Shown: positions 18,087 to 29,581 of the stretch, piece by piece
Layout of the letters: each line of letters begins with the position of its first letter
Position numbering within the stretch: position 1 is the first letter of the stretch
From: a virus
Taxonomy: Duplodnaviria; Caudoviricetes
DNA length: 64,000 bases
IMG/VR virus record: IMGVR_UViG_3300029288_000065
Coordinates: 32,001-96,000 of that record
Strand: one strand, 5' to 3'
Made by a program: the position numbers and the translations under genes
Notes under the pieces: model-generated
What the model was told of the DNA's origin: nothing
Database searches by the model: none
What the model saw: the letters and a program-made list of their open reading frames with translations, nothing else

Positions 18087-19649
18087 ATGGTAGTAAAGAA
18101 AACCCAGCATCTGACCAGCGCAACACCGGCTGGTGGGAATGACACACGGATGCAGAAACTCGTACTGGAATCCAAGCGGAACCAAATGGTTAACCGCTGG
18201 CAGCCAGTATTGGCAAAGTGCCGTGAAGTCCAGCCCAATAAGTACGGACTCATGGCAGCGGTGTTGGAAAACCAGCACGCCTACATGGAAAGCAAGAAGA
18301 AAGGTGGATTCCTCACAGAGGAAGCAACCACCACGGGCGATATTGCTGATTTCACCCGCTTTGCACTCCCGATGATCCGCAAGTCCTACCCGCGCCTCAT
18401 CGCCGATAACCTCGTTGGCGTTCAGCCGATGAGCAGCCCAGCCAGCTTGATCTTCTACATCCGCTATCGTTACGCCATCAGCAAGGGCCAGACGGTTGCC
18501 GGAACGCAGATCATGCGCCAGAATACTGCTCAGCAGTTTGCTCGGCAGAACGGTTGGGCGCTTGACCCATACTACAGCTCCCAGACCGTCAAGGGAGAAG
18601 ACCTTACCATCAACCCAGGTGGAATGGTCGTCGTGGGAACACTCCTCCACAAACCAGTTCTTGCTGGTACAGTGGTTGTTAACGTTTACGCATCAGACGT
18701 TGATAACTGCGAAGACGCAACCCCGTGTCTGCAGGTCACGTTCGATTCGGACGGTCTGCCTGAATTCGTAATCCCAGGCGACGGCTCGGACTGCCCAACA
18801 GTCACAGTTGATACCACCACCACTGGTGCCACTCGGTTCAACCACGAGACGGGCGCTGTAACAGTGACCCTCAGCGCTGGAGCATTCCCAGCCGGCTTCA
18901 TCGCCAGAGCGGACTACGAGTTCGATCTTGAGAACAACCCATTCCAGCCAGAAATCACACTGTCCATCGACAGTGACTCGGTTTCCGCTGTGACGCGTAA
19001 GCTCAAGACCAGCTGGTCCCTGGAAGCTGCCCAGGACCTGAAGTCCGTCCACAACATCGACGCAGAAGGCACGTTGACCGACCTCATGGCCGATGAAATG
19101 GTTGCTGAAATCGACCGCGAAATCATCAACGACTTGATCATCGCTGCCGCGATTCGTGCGACCCACAACTTCGCGACGGCTGCCGGTGCCTCAGTCAACT
19201 TCACAGACCGAAACATTGCGTTGCTCTACAAGGTCCTGGAAGTTGCAAACATCATCCACAGAACCACCCTCCGTGGTCCTGCAAACTGGATGGTGACCAG
19301 TGCGGATATCGCCAGCAAGTTCGAACAGCTGAACGATTTCCGTGGATCGGATGCTCTCGCCAACGAGGGTATCGATATCGGCATCACCTCTGCCGGTACG
19401 ATCCAGGGCAAGTTGAAGCTGTACAAGGACCCACTCTTCCCGAACTGCAAGATCCTGCTCGGATTCAAGGGGAACTCGGTTCTGGATTCGGGTTACTTCT
19501 ACGCTCCATACATCCCACTGCTCAGCACTCCGACCGTGCTGGACCCGAACAGCTTCACGCCGAATAAGGGAATTATGACCAGATACGGCAAGAAGCTCAT
19601 TGAGGATGGTGGCCTGTACTACGCCACTGTTAATGTAACAAACCTTTAA
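18087..19649 (+). CDS. Major capsid protein, T4 gp23-like
   Basis: PRLIADNLVGVQPM, TRKLKTSWSLEAAQDL, AEIDREII, GYFYAPYIPL, GIMTRYG; strong C-ending codon bias; AGGAG SD. Confidence 0.97.
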   Translation: MVVKKTQHLTSATPAGGNDTRMQKLVLESKRNQMVNRWQPVLAKCREVQPNKYGLMAAVLENQHAYMESKKKGGFLTEEATTTGDIADFTRFALPMIRKSYPRLIADNLVGVQPMSSPASLIFYIRYRYAISKGQTVAGTQIMRQNTAQQFARQNGWALDPYYSSQTVKGEDLTINPGGMVVVGTLLHKPVLAGTVVVNVYASDVDNCEDATPCLQVTFDSDGLPEFVIPGDGSDCPTVTVDTTTTGATRFNHETGAVTVTLSAGAFPAGFIARADYEFDLENNPFQPEITLSIDSDSVSAVTRKLKTSWSLEAAQDLKSVHNIDAEGTLTDLMADEMVAEIDREIINDLIIAAAIRATHNFATAAGASVNFTDRNIALLYKVLEVANIIHRTTLRGPANWMVTSADIASKFEQLNDFRGSDALANEGIDIGITSAGTIQGKLKLYKDPLFPNCKILLGFKGNSVLDSGYFYAPYIPLLSTPTVLDPNSFTPNKGIMTRYGKKLIEDGGLYYATVNVTNL

Positions 19650-19751: not shown

Positions 19752-21257
19752 ATGAAGAAATGTAAAATTTGTGGAATAGAAAAAGAAATATCTGAATTTC
19801 CAAAAGTTGGGGTTATTTGTAGAAAATGTAAAGCATCTAAACTTAGAGAATATAGGAAAAATAACCCAAATATTAAAAATGAGAGGAAGGAATACCGTAA
19901 GAATAATAGGGATAAAATTAATGAACAAAAAAGATTATTATATCAGGCGCATCCTACTATTATTAAACAAAAGAATAATATTTATTATCATAATAACGCT
20001 GAACATTGTAGGACCAGACAGAGAGAATATCAGAAAAGGGTTGAAACAAAAGATATTGATTCTTGGATTTGTAAGTGTATCAAACATGCTAAAGCGTCAG
20101 ATAAGAGGTTGAAGCGTGTTTTTGATTTGGATTTTGATTATGTAAAGGAAATGTATAATATTCAAGGCGGTAATTGTTTATTGAGCGGTAACAAAATGTT
20201 GCATGAGAGAAATAATCTTTTCTCTTTGTCTATTGACAGGATTGATCCAAAATTTGGTCATATAAAAGGGAATATACAATTAGTATGTCAGGCTATAAAT
20301 CTTGCAAAGAGGGAATATAGTAATGAACATTTGGTAGATTTTCTTGATAGTTGCTTGGAAACCAATCTGTCTGGATTTGATGGTTTTAATTATAATGAAT
20401 CAATTTCCAATTATGATCTTTTAAAGAGGAGAAAGTTGAAGAGGGAATTAAGGAAAAAATTTTCTGATTTTAAGCCTCCTACTTTTAAGGTTGAAGAATT
20501 GAAAGATGACATGAATGAGATTTTGAAATTGGAGGTTGGCGATTACTTGATTGATGGGGTTTGGCGTTCACATAAACCAGATGGGAAATCATGGGCTGGT
20601 AAGAAGTTAATTTGGCATTTTCAGCCACATTTATGGGATGTGAGGACTTTGGGGAAGCCTTTGATGAGTGAAGTTTGGGGGAAGGATTGTGGGATTTTTG
20701 AGCGTACATTGGATAATTTGGTAGCTGGTAAGTCTATTACTTATGATAGAATTATTAGGGAATTTATTTTTTCTGGAGTTGGTATTCCATCACAAATTCA
20801 TACTGGTTTTGCTAAGGCTATTTTTAAACATTTTGGTGGGAGATCTGTCTTCGATCCGTTTGCTGGATGGGGTGGGAGAATGTTGGCTGTTGCTTCTTTG
20901 GGTTTGAAGTATTGTGCTTGTGATTTGAGTGAGAAGACTGTAGAGGGTTTGAAAAATATGGCGAGGTTTATTGGATTTGATTGTGATTTAAAGTCGTGTA
21001 ATTGTTTTAATATGGAGATACCGAGTGCTGACATTATGTTTACATCTCCTCCTTTTGGTTCTGAGGAATATATTAATTCGAATTCATCTTGTGATCTTTT
21101 AAAATTAATTGAGATTACCAATCATATACCGATTAGGGTTTTACATTTGAATAAATATTTGGCTGATTTGACAGGGTGGGATTTGGTTCCTGTTCAGGCT
21201 CGTGTGAGGGCTGCTGGTGATACTTCGCAGGAATTTTTGGCGATTAAGATAAGATGA
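19752..21257 (+). CDS. HNH-type homing-endonuclease-like domain fused to an amino-DNA-methyltransferase-like domain
   Basis: N-terminal CKIC..CRKC; SIDRIDPKFGHIKGNIQLVCQAINLAK (HNH-like); C-terminal FDPFAGWGGRML (SAM-binding) and FTSPPF (catalytic motif IV-like). Confidence 0.75.
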   Translation: MKKCKICGIEKEISEFPKVGVICRKCKASKLREYRKNNPNIKNERKEYRKNNRDKINEQKRLLYQAHPTIIKQKNNIYYHNNAEHCRTRQREYQKRVETKDIDSWICKCIKHAKASDKRLKRVFDLDFDYVKEMYNIQGGNCLLSGNKMLHERNNLFSLSIDRIDPKFGHIKGNIQLVCQAINLAKREYSNEHLVDFLDSCLETNLSGFDGFNYNESISNYDLLKRRKLKRELRKKFSDFKPPTFKVEELKDDMNEILKLEVGDYLIDGVWRSHKPDGKSWAGKKLIWHFQPHLWDVRTLGKPLMSEVWGKDCGIFERTLDNLVAGKSITYDRIIREFIFSGVGIPSQIHTGFAKAIFKHFGGRSVFDPFAGWGGRMLAVASLGLKYCACDLSEKTVEGLKNMARFIGFDCDLKSCNCFNMEIPSADIMFTSPPFGSEEYINSNSSCDLLKLIEITNHIPIRVLHLNKYLADLTGWDLVPVQARVRAAGDTSQEFLAIKIR

Positions 21258-21943: not shown

Positions 21944-21949
21944 GTTAAG

Positions 21950-21979
21950 GAAGAACCCCGGTTTTGCCGGGGTTCTTTT
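21950..21979 (+). terminator. Intrinsic terminator, near-copy of the one at 19659
   Basis: AAGAACCCCGG-ttttg-CCGGGGTTCTTTT. Confidence 0.8.
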
Positions 21980-22432: not shown

Positions 22433-22736
22433 TCTAGAATTCTTTGAACATGCTAAGATTTTAAAGAGTGATCCTCATATTTTACTTTCGTCTTGTCCGC
22501 AGTTTTTGATTAACCATCCGTCTTTTAAGGCTATTGTTTCTGATGGTAGACGTGTTATTCCTTTGATTTTGCGTGATTTTGAAGTTGACGAGATGTTTTC
22601 TTGGGATATTGTTCTTGAACATATTGTTGGTTTTTGTCCTTGTCCGGTTGAGCATCGTGGTGTTGTTGATAAGATTCGACAGGATTGGTTGGAGTGGGGT
22701 AGGAAGCGTGGTTTCCTTACGGAGAATATGGGATGA
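22425..22736 (+). CDS. Hypothetical protein (HPxFxxI...PLILR...WLEWG type)
   Basis: Coupled to neighbours; motif pattern resembles small bacterial proteins of unknown function. Confidence 0.55.
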   Translation: MTDLEFFEHAKILKSDPHILLSSCPQFLINHPSFKAIVSDGRRVIPLILRDFEVDEMFSWDIVLEHIVGFCPCPVEHRGVVDKIRQDWLEWGRKRGFLTENMG

Positions 22737-23098
22737 CAACAACTCCGTCAAAGAATAATGATGCTTTTGAGGTATCATTATCTTTTAGGCAAGAGATTAT
22801 TTGTTCATTTTCTATTAGGATTAATAATCATTCTATTCATTGCGATCTATGTTTAAAAGATGATTATGATTATAACAATCCAGATAATGATCCGATTTTT
22901 TTGATTCAGTCTTGGTATGGACATTGGGAGGTAAATTTATCTAGTAAGGAGGTTATTTTTGTTGATTGGGGTTTTCATCCTAAATTAATTATTAGGAATT
23001 TGAGAATAGAAGAAAAGAGACGTTTGATTAGAAAGTGTAAGAAGTTCTTACGGAGAAATAAGAAGTGGCATTGGGTCATGGGGGTGGATTATGTTTGA
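22733..23098 (+). CDS. Hypothetical protein, DP-motif family; paralog of the C-terminal domain of 24870..25256
   Basis: YDYNNPDND...WYGHWEVNLS...EEKRRLIRKCKKFLRR. Confidence 0.6.
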   Translation: MTTTPSKNNDAFEVSLSFRQEIICSFSIRINNHSIHCDLCLKDDYDYNNPDNDPIFLIQSWYGHWEVNLSSKEVIFVDWGFHPKLIIRNLRIEEKRRLIRKCKKFLRRNKKWHWVMGVDYV

Positions 23099-23342: not shown

Positions 23343-23663
23343 ATGATTTCTGATACGTTTAAAGTTTGTGAGGAATTATGTAGTATTGGTAATTCTGCTG
23401 GTTTAAAATGTCATATTAGGAAGAATTATGTTTTTTGTCTAAAATATGATGTTGTTGTGTATCCAAGGTTGCATAGTGAGGAGTTGTTGTTTAAATATAA
23501 GAGTGATATTATTTTGGAAGTCGATGATGGTGTTATACGTTGTACTAAGTGTAGGTATTCAAATAATAAGGAAATCTCTTGGGATTTGTGTGATCCTGGT
23601 GTTTTTGAGTCGATTCTTTGTTGGTTTAAGAGTCAGAGAGTTCAGCCAGAGAAGATTTTATGA
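23343..23663 (+). CDS. Hypothetical protein, DP-motif family
   Basis: C-terminal WDLCDPGVFESI; GGAG SD. Confidence 0.55.
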   Translation: MISDTFKVCEELCSIGNSAGLKCHIRKNYVFCLKYDVVVYPRLHSEELLFKYKSDIILEVDDGVIRCTKCRYSNNKEISWDLCDPGVFESILCWFKSQRVQPEKIL

Positions 23664-24456: not shown

Positions 24457-24873
24457 ATGACTATTGAAGAATTTAATATCAAAGCAGGTTGCCAAGTGCC
24501 ATGGACGAGAGGTACTTGGAATGGTCAATTTTTGTCTTTGGATGATACTCCAGCAGGTGATTTCAAACCGGAAGAAATTTGGCGAGTATTGGCAGTCAAT
24601 AATTCAGGTGGTGATTGGGATGGTTTCGGTGCAGCAGTCATACAATTGAAGGATGGAAGGTGGGTGGCGTGGGAATCAAGTTGGGGTCCAACGGGAAGTG
24701 GTTTTAGCGAAGATGCTTATGGTGGTGATGCGAATGTTTATTTCTCATCGACTATGGAAGGAGCAATAATGCTTGGGTTGACTCCTGTTAGTAGAGATTT
24801 ATTGGGTTTGGACACGGAAAATTGGTCAGATCCAAATGCTAAGTTGCCGGTCTTGGAAGAGATTACACCATGA
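24457..24873 (+). CDS. Hypothetical Trp/Gly-rich protein
   Basis: 138-aa ORF, AGGA SD, ATGA-coupled to the next ORF. Confidence 0.6.
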   Translation: MTIEEFNIKAGCQVPWTRGTWNGQFLSLDDTPAGDFKPEEIWRVLAVNNSGGDWDGFGAAVIQLKDGRWVAWESSWGPTGSGFSEDAYGGDANVYFSSTMEGAIMLGLTPVSRDLLGLDTENWSDPNAKLPVLEEITP

Positions 24874-25256
24874 ATGTTGGTTCGTTTTCGAGATTTGTTT
24901 TCCCTTTAATCAGGAAGTCTTATCCTGCTCTGATTGCTAACCAACTTGTGGGTGTTCAACCAATGACTCCAACAGTTAAAGATTTTGGAATTTTTAAGTT
25001 AAAGATTGATCGTCAGAGGTATAATATTGCTGTTTCTTTGTTGGAAAAGTATGATTATTCTAATCCTAGTAATGATATACTTGTTGAAGCTCATTTTGGT
25101 GCGTGGTTTTGGAAAGTGAATGTTTCTCGTGGATGTGTTCAATGTGTCTCGAAGTTTATAAATGGCCCAAACAAGAAAGTTTTGTCGGTTGCTGAGAGGA
25201 GAGAATTGGTTGCTGGCTGTAGAAAAGCCCTAAGGAAACTTCATGATAAAGATTAG
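24870..25256 (+). CDS. MCP (Gol-region) peptide fused to a DP-motif ORFan domain
   Basis: N-terminal FSRFVFPLIRKSYPALIANQLVGVQPM matches MCP FTRFALPMIRKSYPRLIADNLVGVQPM at 20/27 positions. Confidence 0.75.
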   Translation: MNVGSFSRFVFPLIRKSYPALIANQLVGVQPMTPTVKDFGIFKLKIDRQRYNIAVSLLEKYDYSNPSNDILVEAHFGAWFWKVNVSRGCVQCVSKFINGPNKKVLSVAERRELVAGCRKALRKLHDKD

Positions 25257-25680: not shown

Positions 25681-26118
25681 ATGGAAGAAAGATCCTGGAC
25701 GATTGCTGGTAGATCCTGGACGATTGCTGGTTGTATGTTTTTCATTCTTGTTTGTGTGGCAATTGCTTGTGGGATGTGGGGGTGCCCACAATACAAGGTG
25801 TATGAGCAGAGGCTTGAGGGAGAGGCTCTTTTGGCACATGCTCAGGCTGCCAAGGAAGTTGCTGTGGCTGAGGCTAAGGCAAAGATGGAGTCTGCGGAAC
25901 TTTTGGCTCAGGCTGAAGTGAAGAGAGCTGAGGGTGTTGCTAAGGCCAATAAGATTATTGGTGATAGTTTGAGGGATAATGAATGCTATTTGAGGTATCT
26001 TTGGATTACTGATGTTTGTGGCTCCAATGTTGATAAGACAGTTGTTTATATTCCTACTGAGTGTAATTTGCCGCTTCTGGAGGCTGGTAGGACGCAGGTA
26101 AAGGCTGAGAAGAAATAA
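25681..26118 (+). CDS. Membrane-anchored SPFH/band-7-like coiled-coil protein
   Basis: N-terminal TM helix, GEALLA..A, AEVKRAEGVAKANKIIGDSL, YLRYLWI, VYIPTE..LPLLEAGR; AAGGAG SD. Confidence 0.65.
   Translation: MEERSWTIAGRSWTIAGCMFFILVCVAIACGMWGCPQYKVYEQRLEGEALLAHAQAAKEVAVAEAKAKMESAELLAQAEVKRAEGVAKANKIIGDSLRDNECYLRYLWITDVCGSNVDKTVVYIPTECNLPLLEAGRTQVKAEKK
25690..25731 (+). repeat. 21-bp perfect in-frame tandem duplication (RSWTIAG x2)
   Basis: AGATCCTGGACGATTGCTGGT twice. Confidence 0.9.
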
Positions 26119-26764: not shown

Positions 26765-27067
26765 GTGGTGAATCTGGATCTGAATGATCCGTCTGTAGAT
26801 CCTCTTGAATTGCTTGGTCAATTCAAAAGATGGACAGAGCAAGATCAAGCAGGACTATATAAAAGTGGTTTTACTGATTTTGGTGTTTTCCTTTGGGTTT
26901 ACGAAAATTGGGGGTCAAAGGAAGAATCTATTGCTTTGGTGACAAGTTATGAGAAGATGGACATATTAAAGGAGCAAATTTTTGAGTTACTTGCTACTTG
27001 GATTAATTCTGATCTTTTGATTGTAGGAAAGAAAGAGCAGGTGACCATTTTCATTTTTAAAGGATAA
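26765..27067 (+). CDS. Hypothetical protein, N-terminal DP-motif subfamily
   Basis: NLDLNDPSVDPLELL; C-terminal LLATWINSDLL. Confidence 0.6.
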   Translation: MVNLDLNDPSVDPLELLGQFKRWTEQDQAGLYKSGFTDFGVFLWVYENWGSKEESIALVTSYEKMDILKEQIFELLATWINSDLLIVGKKEQVTIFIFKG

Positions 27068-27070
27068 TTT

Positions 27071-27379
27071 ATGGGTTTCGTTGGTGCTCCTGGTCCTCTT
27101 GGTCCTCCTGGTGGACAATATGTTATGGAGGTTCGTGAATGGATGATAGGTTTGAATGGTTTGTTGGTGGTTGTTCCTTCTCGTGATAATGATATTGCTA
27201 ATCCACAGAGTGAAATTTGTTTGTGGGATTTAAATGGTTTCGTTTATTTTAAGGAAAAGAAGTATAAATATATAGGTTCAGATTCTATAGGATATTTTTT
27301 ATGGGATGTTGATACACTTTATAAATTGCCTTATAAGATACCAGAAGAATTTTTCTCACAGATTCCTGTCCAAATATAA
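27071..27379 (+). CDS. Hypothetical protein, DP-motif family
   Basis: DNDIANPQSE; AAGGA SD. Confidence 0.5.
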   Translation: MGFVGAPGPLGPPGGQYVMEVREWMIGLNGLLVVVPSRDNDIANPQSEICLWDLNGFVYFKEKKYKYIGSDSIGYFLWDVDTLYKLPYKIPEEFFSQIPVQI

Positions 27380-28243: not shown

Positions 28244-28630
28244 CTATGCGAAGAGATCTCCGTCTTCAATATCTATGTTTATATCTCTATCTCTACAGTA
28301 CAAACTATATAATTTGTCTACGATGAATTCAGGATCGAAACTCTTTGGATTTCCATATTCATATTCCCAGACGATGTTATTGTTTATCAGAGTCCCATCT
28401 TCGTCTTTATCTTCATCTTCTATTGAGGGTTTTGTGTCTCCAGAATCATATTCTATGACAAATTTCCCATCGTCGTCATATATATCACATATTTTTCCGA
28501 CTGTTTCACTTTCGACGTTTAACATGTCACTTCCAGGAATATTTAGGTCGGTGTAGAATAATTCGACGCCCCATTTTTCGGAAATTCTTTTTTGTATTGC
28601 TTCTAATATTTCTGGTGCTATTCTGCTCAT
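28244..28630 (-). CDS. Hypothetical acidic protein, DP-motif family
   Basis: WEYEYGNPKSFDPEFIVDKL. Confidence 0.55.
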   Translation of the reverse strand: MSRIAPEILEAIQKRISEKWGVELFYTDLNIPGSDMLNVESETVGKICDIYDDDGKFVIEYDSGDTKPSIEDEDKDEDGTLINNNIVWEYEYGNPKSFDPEFIVDKLYSLYCRDRDINIDIEDGDLFA

Positions 28631-28681: not shown

Positions 28682-29581
28682 ATGCGACGAATCAAAAGAT
28701 TCACCAAGGCTCTGAAACTTGCTGGGAAATCTCTATTATGTTGCAAGAAAACTTCAACAGATCCTGTCATTGTTCCTAGCACTGGAGATACGAAAATGAG
28801 CGACAAGATCCTCCTGGTTGGAATAAATGCCTATCCAAGTTGTCCATTGGCTGGATGTGTGAACGACGTTACAGATATGGCTAATTTTTTGGTGACGAAA
28901 TGTGGTGTTTTGGAAGATAATATCCGTCTCTTGGTAGATGGTCGTGCCACTACTGGAAACATTCTGGATCGGTTGAATTGGTTGACTCAGGCAAGCCCTG
29001 GTGATCGTGTTCTTTTTCATTATTCTGGTCATGGTGCGCAGGTCCCAGCGAGAAATTCTTCCGGTGAGATTGACCAACTTTCTGAGTGTATTTGTCCAGT
29101 TGATTTTGATTGGTCTGAGCAGCGTATGATTATTGACAAGCAATTTGTTGAAATTTTTAAGAAAATTCCACCAGGTGTTAGATTCTCTTGGATTAGTGAT
29201 TCTTGTCATAGTGGGGATTTGGATCGTGGATTGACCAAGGGGAATTCCAAGGTTCTTGGAATTAGAAGATTCCCCATCCCTGCTGATATTGCTTGGAGGC
29301 AGAGGATTGCTAAGAAGAAAGCTTTGCGTGCTATGGTTGGTAATACGCTGGATGTTGGATATATTTCTGGTTGTATGGATAATCAGACATCGGCTGATGC
29401 TGAATTTGGTGGTAAGGCAAATGGTGCATTAACATATTTCTTACTGCGAAATTTGGGAAATATGTTACAATCGCCAATTTCTTCGGTTACAAATAAGGTT
29501 ATTTCTGATTTGCAGTCTTCTGGTTATGAGCAAACTCCTACGTGTTCTGGAGCGAGAAAAGATTTGGCTTTCTTATCCTAG
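28682..29581 (+). CDS. Metacaspase / caspase-family cysteine peptidase (C14)
   Basis: LLVGINAY..L.GCVND, FHYSGHG (catalytic His), ISDSCHSG (catalytic Cys), QTSADA, GALT; second in-frame SD+ATG at 28796. Confidence 0.92.
   Translation: MRRIKRFTKALKLAGKSLLCCKKTSTDPVIVPSTGDTKMSDKILLVGINAYPSCPLAGCVNDVTDMANFLVTKCGVLEDNIRLLVDGRATTGNILDRLNWLTQASPGDRVLFHYSGHGAQVPARNSSGEIDQLSECICPVDFDWSEQRMIIDKQFVEIFKKIPPGVRFSWISDSCHSGDLDRGLTKGNSKVLGIRRFPIPADIAWRQRIAKKKALRAMVGNTLDVGYISGCMDNQTSADAEFGGKANGALTYFLLRNLGNMLQSPISSVTNKVISDLQSSGYEQTPTCSGARKDLAFLS

Follow-up and report, generated by a model that had tools for sequence, protein, structure and literature searches.

The window, that is the whole stretch of DNA analysed here (64,000 nucleotides), covers positions 32001-96000 of a 233,959-bp linear record from an uncultured giant phage with a completeness of 89% (CheckV). 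It carries a head module of the T4 type and a small gene, P0001, in which a piece of a capsid protein is joined to an unrelated carrier domain. The features are as follows, in window coordinates except for the last.

18087-19649, + strand: gp23-type major capsid protein (MCP), full-length, 520 aa (Pfam Gp23, E 4.7e-78)
18339-18434, + strand: residues 85-116 of this MCP, the homologous segment, just past the predicted TEE maturation site
22733-23098, + strand: carrier paralogue with an Asp-Pro tag and without the capsid peptide
24457-24873, + strand: upstream ORFan, 138 aa, translationally coupled to P0001
24870-25256, + strand: fusion gene P0001, 128 aa, capsid N-arm peptide plus carrier domain, an architecture shared by the orthologues P0002 and P0003
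24873-24968, + strand: residues 2-33 of P0001, gp23-type capsid N-arm segment, Gol-homologous (helix, short helix, strand ending VQPM)
24981-25250, + strand: residues 38-127 of P0001, carrier domain of five beta strands and a C-terminal helix
25053-25067, + strand: Asp-Pro tag DYSNP, residues 62-66 of P0001, in a carrier loop
Genome 158350-158727 (L014:1851-2228), - strand, outside the window: third carrier paralogue with a phage-G-type capsid N-arm piece, located by in-genome homology to P0001

P0001 is one of several small, T-rich accessory genes lined up 5 kb downstream of the MCP gene, and its start ATG overlaps the stop of the upstream ORF (ATGA). The upstream ORFan is syntenic in the relative L001, where a 77% identical copy precedes the P0001 orthologue. 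The P0001 gene is identical in a second assembly. A frameshifted or split MCP was rejected as its source, since the phage also encodes a full-length MCP, and P0001 lies among small ORFs in two independent assemblies. In P0001, P0002 and P0003 the ATG is placed 1-3 codons ahead of the capsid block, in different contexts, so that a translation start downstream of the peptide, which the initial annotation had raised, is unlikely. An internal start at Met32 was considered and rejected; the GGGTG upstream of it here is not conserved in L009. Other genes of the region include a 501-aa endonuclease-like and methyltransferase-like gene immediately after the MCP gene (19752-21257), which is AT-rich and may cause breaks close to the capsid gene. 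The accessory genes include a phrog_11227 protein with an N-terminal hydrophobic stretch (25681-26118) and a caspase-like protein assigned by motif (28682-29581, 71% to L001).

The top structural match of the MCP model is T4 gp23 (Z 21.5, rmsd 3.2, 263 residues aligned). In the model, the homologous segment forms the N-arm helix, a short helix and a strand, and ends just before the E-loop strand (model residues 6-37, helices at 11-21 and 27-30). The initial annotation had matched the start of P0001 to the MCP of the same phage, and the comparison gave the same result: residues 6-32 are identical to MCP 89-115 (18351-18431) at 20 of 27 positions (in-genome tblastn, E 8e-11), and the capsid homology begins as early as residue 2 (MCP 85). 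The Pfam Gp23 profile (PF07068) matches residues 4-47 above the cut-off (E 1.4e-6) over profile positions 2-43 of 376, and the remainder is predicted to be a separate small domain. P0001 contains the N-arm motif ending VQPM and lacks the full HK97 fold with its E-loop, P- and A-domains. The tail is predicted to be unstructured in P0001 (pLDDT <50 for residues 1-35). A six-frame profile search of the genome found the gp23 N-arm in the MCP and P0001 only, and no fragments of other own proteins were found in the small ORFs of this genome. Outside this genome, an MCP with 75% identity is encoded on a contig (L131) binned in a Promethearchaeota MAG; this is the only MAG match and probably reflects bin contamination.

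At the nucleotide level the two copies are far apart, with only 5 of the 20 shared residues encoded by an identical codon and the synonymous sites saturated (pS 0.88). C-ending codons make up 15 of 27 in the MCP segment and T-ending codons 13 of 27 in the P0001 peptide. The earlier suggestion that the peptide had been recoded with T-ending codons while the protein was conserved therefore stands as a description of the codons and of conservation at the protein level, but the bias is not specific to the peptide: T3 is 0.52 in both the peptide and the remainder of the ORF, and 0.50 in the paralogue. As the T-ending bias spans the accessory region, the apparent recoding reflects age and local bias rather than anything directed at the peptide.

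The peptide is identical to its own MCP at 20 of 31 positions, to other MCPs of the clade at up to 22 of 31 (the maximum among 107 sampled MCP segments) and to those of other gp23 clades at 19-21 of 31. Its Gly4, Phe11 and Asn24 are the residues of 86-89% of the sampled gp23-type MCP segments and are absent from every own-clade MCP read across 79 loci. These pan-family residues at three clade-diagnostic columns indicate that the peptide does not track the own MCP, and its donor is apparently old or foreign. A sequence of this kind would suit a dominant-negative tail that jams assembly of the capsid or scaffold in jumbo phages infecting the same cell, the non-self residues sparing the own capsid; the foreign, G-type capsid piece on the third paralogue also fits such interference. 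However, the nearest MCPs to the tail still belong to the own clade, fragments in other phages resemble the capsid of their own clade (66-75%), and the reciprocal T4-type piece was not seen in 16 G-type records, a set without a positive control. Interference between phages is thus an unlikely function.

The same segment could instead direct the carrier to the phage's own head by entering the scaffold or chaperonin pathway, so that the carrier is loaded into the virion. The N-arm helix faces the scaffold in HK97-fold procapsids; the tail is predicted to correspond to this helix, and the gene lies on the same strand as the MCP gene. T4 internal proteins carry a short N-terminal capsid-targeting sequence that is tied to head assembly. 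P0001 resembles them in having a short N-terminal tag on a small protein, but there is no sequence likeness and no Glu cleavage site, and the tag of P0001 derives from a capsid protein. The T4-type propeptide is cut after Glu by the prohead protease, whereas the first Glu of P0001 is residue 59; with no Glu in the first 58 residues, P0001 has no T4-type maturation site. In addition, a predicted terminator (21949-21979) separates the MCP gene from P0001, the tail differs from the own MCP at the clade-diagnostic sites, and no matching capsid was found in this genome for the G-type paralogue. Targeting to the own head is accordingly improbable.

The fusion is kept in two orthologues, P0002 in the syntenic relative L001 and P0003 in L009; pattern scans of IMG/VR and metagenome contigs revealed no further ones. 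Neutral decay of the peptide in relatives, which would have spoken against a function, was not seen. The peptide is under purifying selection, with dN/dS values (Nei-Gojobori) of 0.17-0.39 among three orthologues (P0001 included) whose dS is near saturation: 0.17 (bootstrap 0-0.50) and 0.25 (0.05-0.74) against P0001, and 0.39 between P0002 and P0003. The carrier has higher values of 0.36-0.57 (0.36 and 0.57 vs. 0.17 and 0.25). In the closest pair, pS of the peptide exceeds its pN (Fisher p 2e-4), and the pN of the peptide is below that of the carrier (Fisher p 0.005). Differences between orthologous fused peptides are concentrated in columns that vary among MCPs (eight pairs pooled, p 5e-5; the pair of P0001 alone, p 0.08), a column test that is inflated because profile searches favour conserved blocks and the matches were found in this way.

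The paralogy of the carrier to 22733-23098, proposed earlier, was confirmed (P0001 residues 42-123, 32% identity over 88 columns, E 4e-7 in the genome), as was the absence of the peptide from that paralogue. The carrier family consists of nine proteins, and its fold has no match in PDB or BFVD and only a weak look-alike in the Atlas. Carriers without any peptide persist (22733 and P0004). In L009, the fused gene is immediately preceded by the orthologue of 22733, an arrangement that points to a tandem duplication. All three paralogues carry a D-Y-x-N-P loop, the D, Y and P of which are invariant in a 10-member carrier alignment. The corresponding motif, [DE]-h-x-[DN]-P, is found in 55 small ORFs of the genome compared with 6.4 by shuffle, and P0001 is a small accessory protein with one such motif. 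With the other two paralogues in the training set, its tag has a leave-one-out score of 16.7, above all 35,800 windows of large proteins. The possibility that the tag mimics the LDPNSF loop of the MCP was rejected, as LDPNSF ranks 2467 of 35,800. Among the neighbouring small ORFs, 23322, 26765, 27071 and 28244 also carry Asp-Pro tags (23586-23600, 26777-26791, 27191-27205 and 28346-28360, respectively), and 50 more sites are found genome-wide.

The third paralogue is absent from the initial annotation and has an orthologue, P0136, in the syntenic L018. Both proteins carry, in the slot that the tail occupies in P0001, an N-terminal piece from another type of capsid. Residues 1-25 of P0136 match the major head protein of phage G, gp27, which is the top match among 50,697 phage records (64% over 25 aa, E 3e-3) and is also matched in the PDB (6wkk, residues 37-61, E 1.4e-4). 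Conversely, G-type queries against the genome have the third paralogue as the best or sole match (E 0.014, 0.003 and 0.002). A full G-type MCP was not found with these queries in the 89%-complete genome, of which 11% may be missing; no HK97-type Pfam match was obtained, and there are no further head families among the best 25 PHROG matches listed. The dN/dS of the G-type tail is 0.25 (0-0.78). The T4-type and G-type carrier groups are separated by ~2.4 changes per site with support of 100/99.

Two of the orthologues combine features of both tails. In P0002, VQPM is followed by a GALP-x-M-Y stretch that is known in G-type but not in gp23-type capsids. P0003 has the G-type Tyr-to-Pro spacing of 12 with gp23-type residues, and the invariant gp23 Pro register is broken. 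By these features, P0002 and P0003 are in-register hybrids of the T4-type and G-type N-arms. We infer that the carrier ancestor may have had a G-type N-arm, which a gp23-type N-arm replaced in one duplicate, in register at V-x-P-[ML]. The gp23-type and the G-type N-arm piece probably represent one element of the HK97 fold. The N-arm was not recovered when whole MCPs of the gp23 type and the G type were aligned profile to profile, and 6wkk is absent from the top 50 structural matches of the own MCP model. As the profile and structure tools are silent here, the equivalence of the N-arms of both families rests on the in-register hybrids together with knowledge of the HK97 fold. The G-type paralogue, the foreign capsid family in the same slot and the in-register hybrids are new here, and no description of capsid-fragment fusions was found in the literature.

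Fusions of gp23 fragments, for which a survey had been proposed, proved widely recurrent. Inspection by eye of the best 120 of 448 short matches and of 30 representative matches yielded 30 fusions of the N-arm block to non-capsid sequence, which fall into about 16 unrelated carrier groups among the matches judged; this recurrence is likewise inflated by the preference of the searches for conserved blocks. The block is N-terminal, in the middle or C-terminal, and several lie behind hydrophobic leaders. Asp-Pro motifs are enriched in the fusions (13 of 30 vs. 1.8, related carriers counted separately). Four fusions checked on their contigs are whole genes with ordinary neighbours. The left edges of the blocks cluster at the xGxF start, where the conservation of the MCP also starts. 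A second N-arm copy is present in three of six near-complete relatives, other MCP blocks are grafted in relatives (285-331, 435-478 and 457-520), and some N-arm copies end without QPM. The grafted unit is a conserved capsid block, of which the N-arm is one of several, and Gol is not special. Among cultured phages the search gave 779 places in 774 records, indicating that second copies are rare there.

Several individual cases are recorded here as observations. The complete 395-kb relative G001 carries MCP blocks 88-137, 437-476 and 285-330 on three small ORFs (L242:1357-1848, L243:1246-1710 and L244:850-1305), two of which have Asp-Pro-like motifs. L015:10001-10925 and L016:8456-10549 each contain paired small genes, with the N-arm block in one and the C-terminal MCP block (457-520) in the other; the capsid block is at the protein C terminus in these pairs, and an LEDP motif occurs in both L015 genes. 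The C-terminal MCP block (458-500 and 461-482) is found on unrelated ORFs of the close relatives G017 (L245:4965-5570) and G014 (L246:1575-2321), ~5-6 kb downstream of the MCP gene, a position as for P0001. In P0009, P0011, P0015, P0087, P0105, P0110, P0121 and P0126 the N-arm block follows a hydrophobic N-terminal leader, which suggests membrane-anchored display. P0005, P0016, P0027, P0031, P0083, P0095 and P0131 also retain a LLENQ-like capsid propeptide piece, and in several fusions a foreign domain lies between this piece and the N-arm block. At L049:842-922 and L050:1501-1581, G-type MCP frames end right after PQGA and AT-rich DNA follows; Rfam places a group I intron at L049:585-809, and the N-arm block resembles a site at which introns insert.

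Such a pattern could arise without mimicry, if capsid blocks were repeatedly acquired by recombination and then retained for a generic use, as leaders or for packing. The acquisition may be aided by homing endonucleases or introns active at this conserved block, and only conserved blocks would remain recognisable. The search bias, the interruption of the G-type block after PQGA, observed at two loci, and the group I intron close by, the persistence of peptide-less carriers, the shifted Pro register of P0003 and the short, 39-44% identical copies of G002, G004 and G006 are in line with this exaptation. However, the tail is predicted to be unstructured and yet is conserved above the folded carrier, the same slot holds two capsid families in register, and the G-type piece is still 64% like a real capsid despite the very long divergence of the carriers. 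We regard exaptation as rather unlikely, though less so than the other alternatives; the readings that invoke mimicry are, when combined, probable.

The Gol peptide, which we take to be residues 94-122 of T4 gp23, had been named in the initial annotation as the equivalent of the tail. Residues 10-35 of P0001 do align with T4 gp23 95-120, with 11 of 26 residues identical. The boundaries agree in part: the tail corresponds to approximately gp23 87-118 and overlaps the Gol peptide, but starts 7 residues earlier and ends ~4 short of it, and in other fusions the block extends up to 20 residues further or ends before QPM. Gol, a 29-residue peptide, binds domains II-III of EF-Tu:GDP and activates the e14 protease Lit, and EF-Tu binding has been proposed for the Gol region of all T4-related gp23 proteins (PMC3014915). 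On this basis, together with the homology to gp23, the tail was suggested to bind EF-Tu and bring the carrier to the translation machinery. The low identity to T4 argues against such a tether, as do the similar use of other MCP blocks and of the G-type N-arm, the copies without QPM and the ~100 residues that more stable EF-Tu binding takes (PMC3014915). Gol holds no special place among the grafted pieces, which include further conserved capsid blocks, and specificity for Gol, EF-Tu or Lit found no support. A co-fold of P0001 residues 1-40 with Escherichia coli EF-Tu and GDP, run without controls, scored 0.00 and is evidence for neither side. The EF-Tu tether is quite unlikely. P0001 shares with the Gol/Lit/EF-Tu system a homologous capsid segment, and in that system a host factor reads the capsid by a short motif. 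However, Gol lies within the capsid protein and triggers defence, whereas P0001 has a free copy on an unrelated carrier, and its tail is replaceable by a G-type N-arm.

The explanation that we favour, with a probability of roughly one in three (~35%), is that P0001 is a bait-plus-dock adaptor for counter-defence, which captures a host factor that recognises the nascent capsid. The unstructured N-terminal tail of the expressed protein would be a selected mimic of the HK97-fold capsid N-arm, an element exposed on nascent or unassembled capsid protein, and would bind the partner of that N-arm. It would thereby bait a host sensor that, like Lit or CapRel, reads the capsid by a short motif, perhaps in concert with EF-Tu or a chaperone. 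The carrier and its Asp-Pro tag may dock the protein onto a common partner, and the dock would sequester or disarm the captured factor. The slot is interchangeable, with a T4-type N-arm on one paralogue and a phage-G-type N-arm on another. A tail more conserved than its carrier, with capsid-like invariants and from two capsid families, fits a bait for a target outside the own head.

Several observations weigh against this adaptor. The free T4 Gol peptide is an activator of Lit and not an inhibitor (PMC3014915; PMC11312562); hence a plain copy could trigger defence, and the dock must supply the inhibition. Lit and CapRel detect the MCP via short motifs, whereas the common STAND capsid sensors Avs7, Avs8 and Avs10 wrap the whole fold (bioRxiv 10.64898/2026.01.04.697583), so that a 32-mer cannot mimic their trigger and would not fool them. 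P0003 breaks the invariant gp23 Pro register, the peptide-less carriers 22733 and P0004 persist, and the argument draws on three orthologues with dS near saturation, on searches biased toward conserved blocks and on a presumed docking role of the tag.

A close parallel is DSAD1, which competitively blocks the trigger site of DSR2 (PMC11087589). As with P0001, it is a small protein of phage origin that is proposed to fill the site used to sense a structural protein. However, DSAD1 is a dedicated protein for which binding has been shown, whereas P0001, as read from sequence, would display as its bait a captured fragment of the sensed protein, borne by a modular carrier. By analogy, the adaptor might, tentatively, act like a competitive trigger mimic. 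The donor families of both tails are the gp23-type MCPs (PF07068, phrog_138) and phage G gp27 (PDB 6wkk). In contrast to these capsid proteins, only 32 and ~25 residues are present, and the HK97 fold cannot form.

Capsid-fragment fusion genes yield false 'major capsid protein' annotations. A T4-type and a G-type N-arm on one carrier, with the peptide-less paralogue as a control, make the old Gol/EF-Tu proposal testable, also for other HK97-fold families. If the tails are baits, they mark capsid epitopes that are recognised by the hosts of uncultured giant phages and could serve as reagents for the pull-down of sensors. More speculatively, and rather doubtfully, giant phages may run a modular bait library, in which structurally equivalent epitopes of different capsid families are swapped in register onto carriers with one docking tag, catch host capsid sensors or rival capsids and pass them to a shared partner of the phage. 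In that case a host receptor would recognise the N-arm as a pattern common to several capsid families. The adaptor, if true, would provide a function for part of the small ORFans of jumbo phages.
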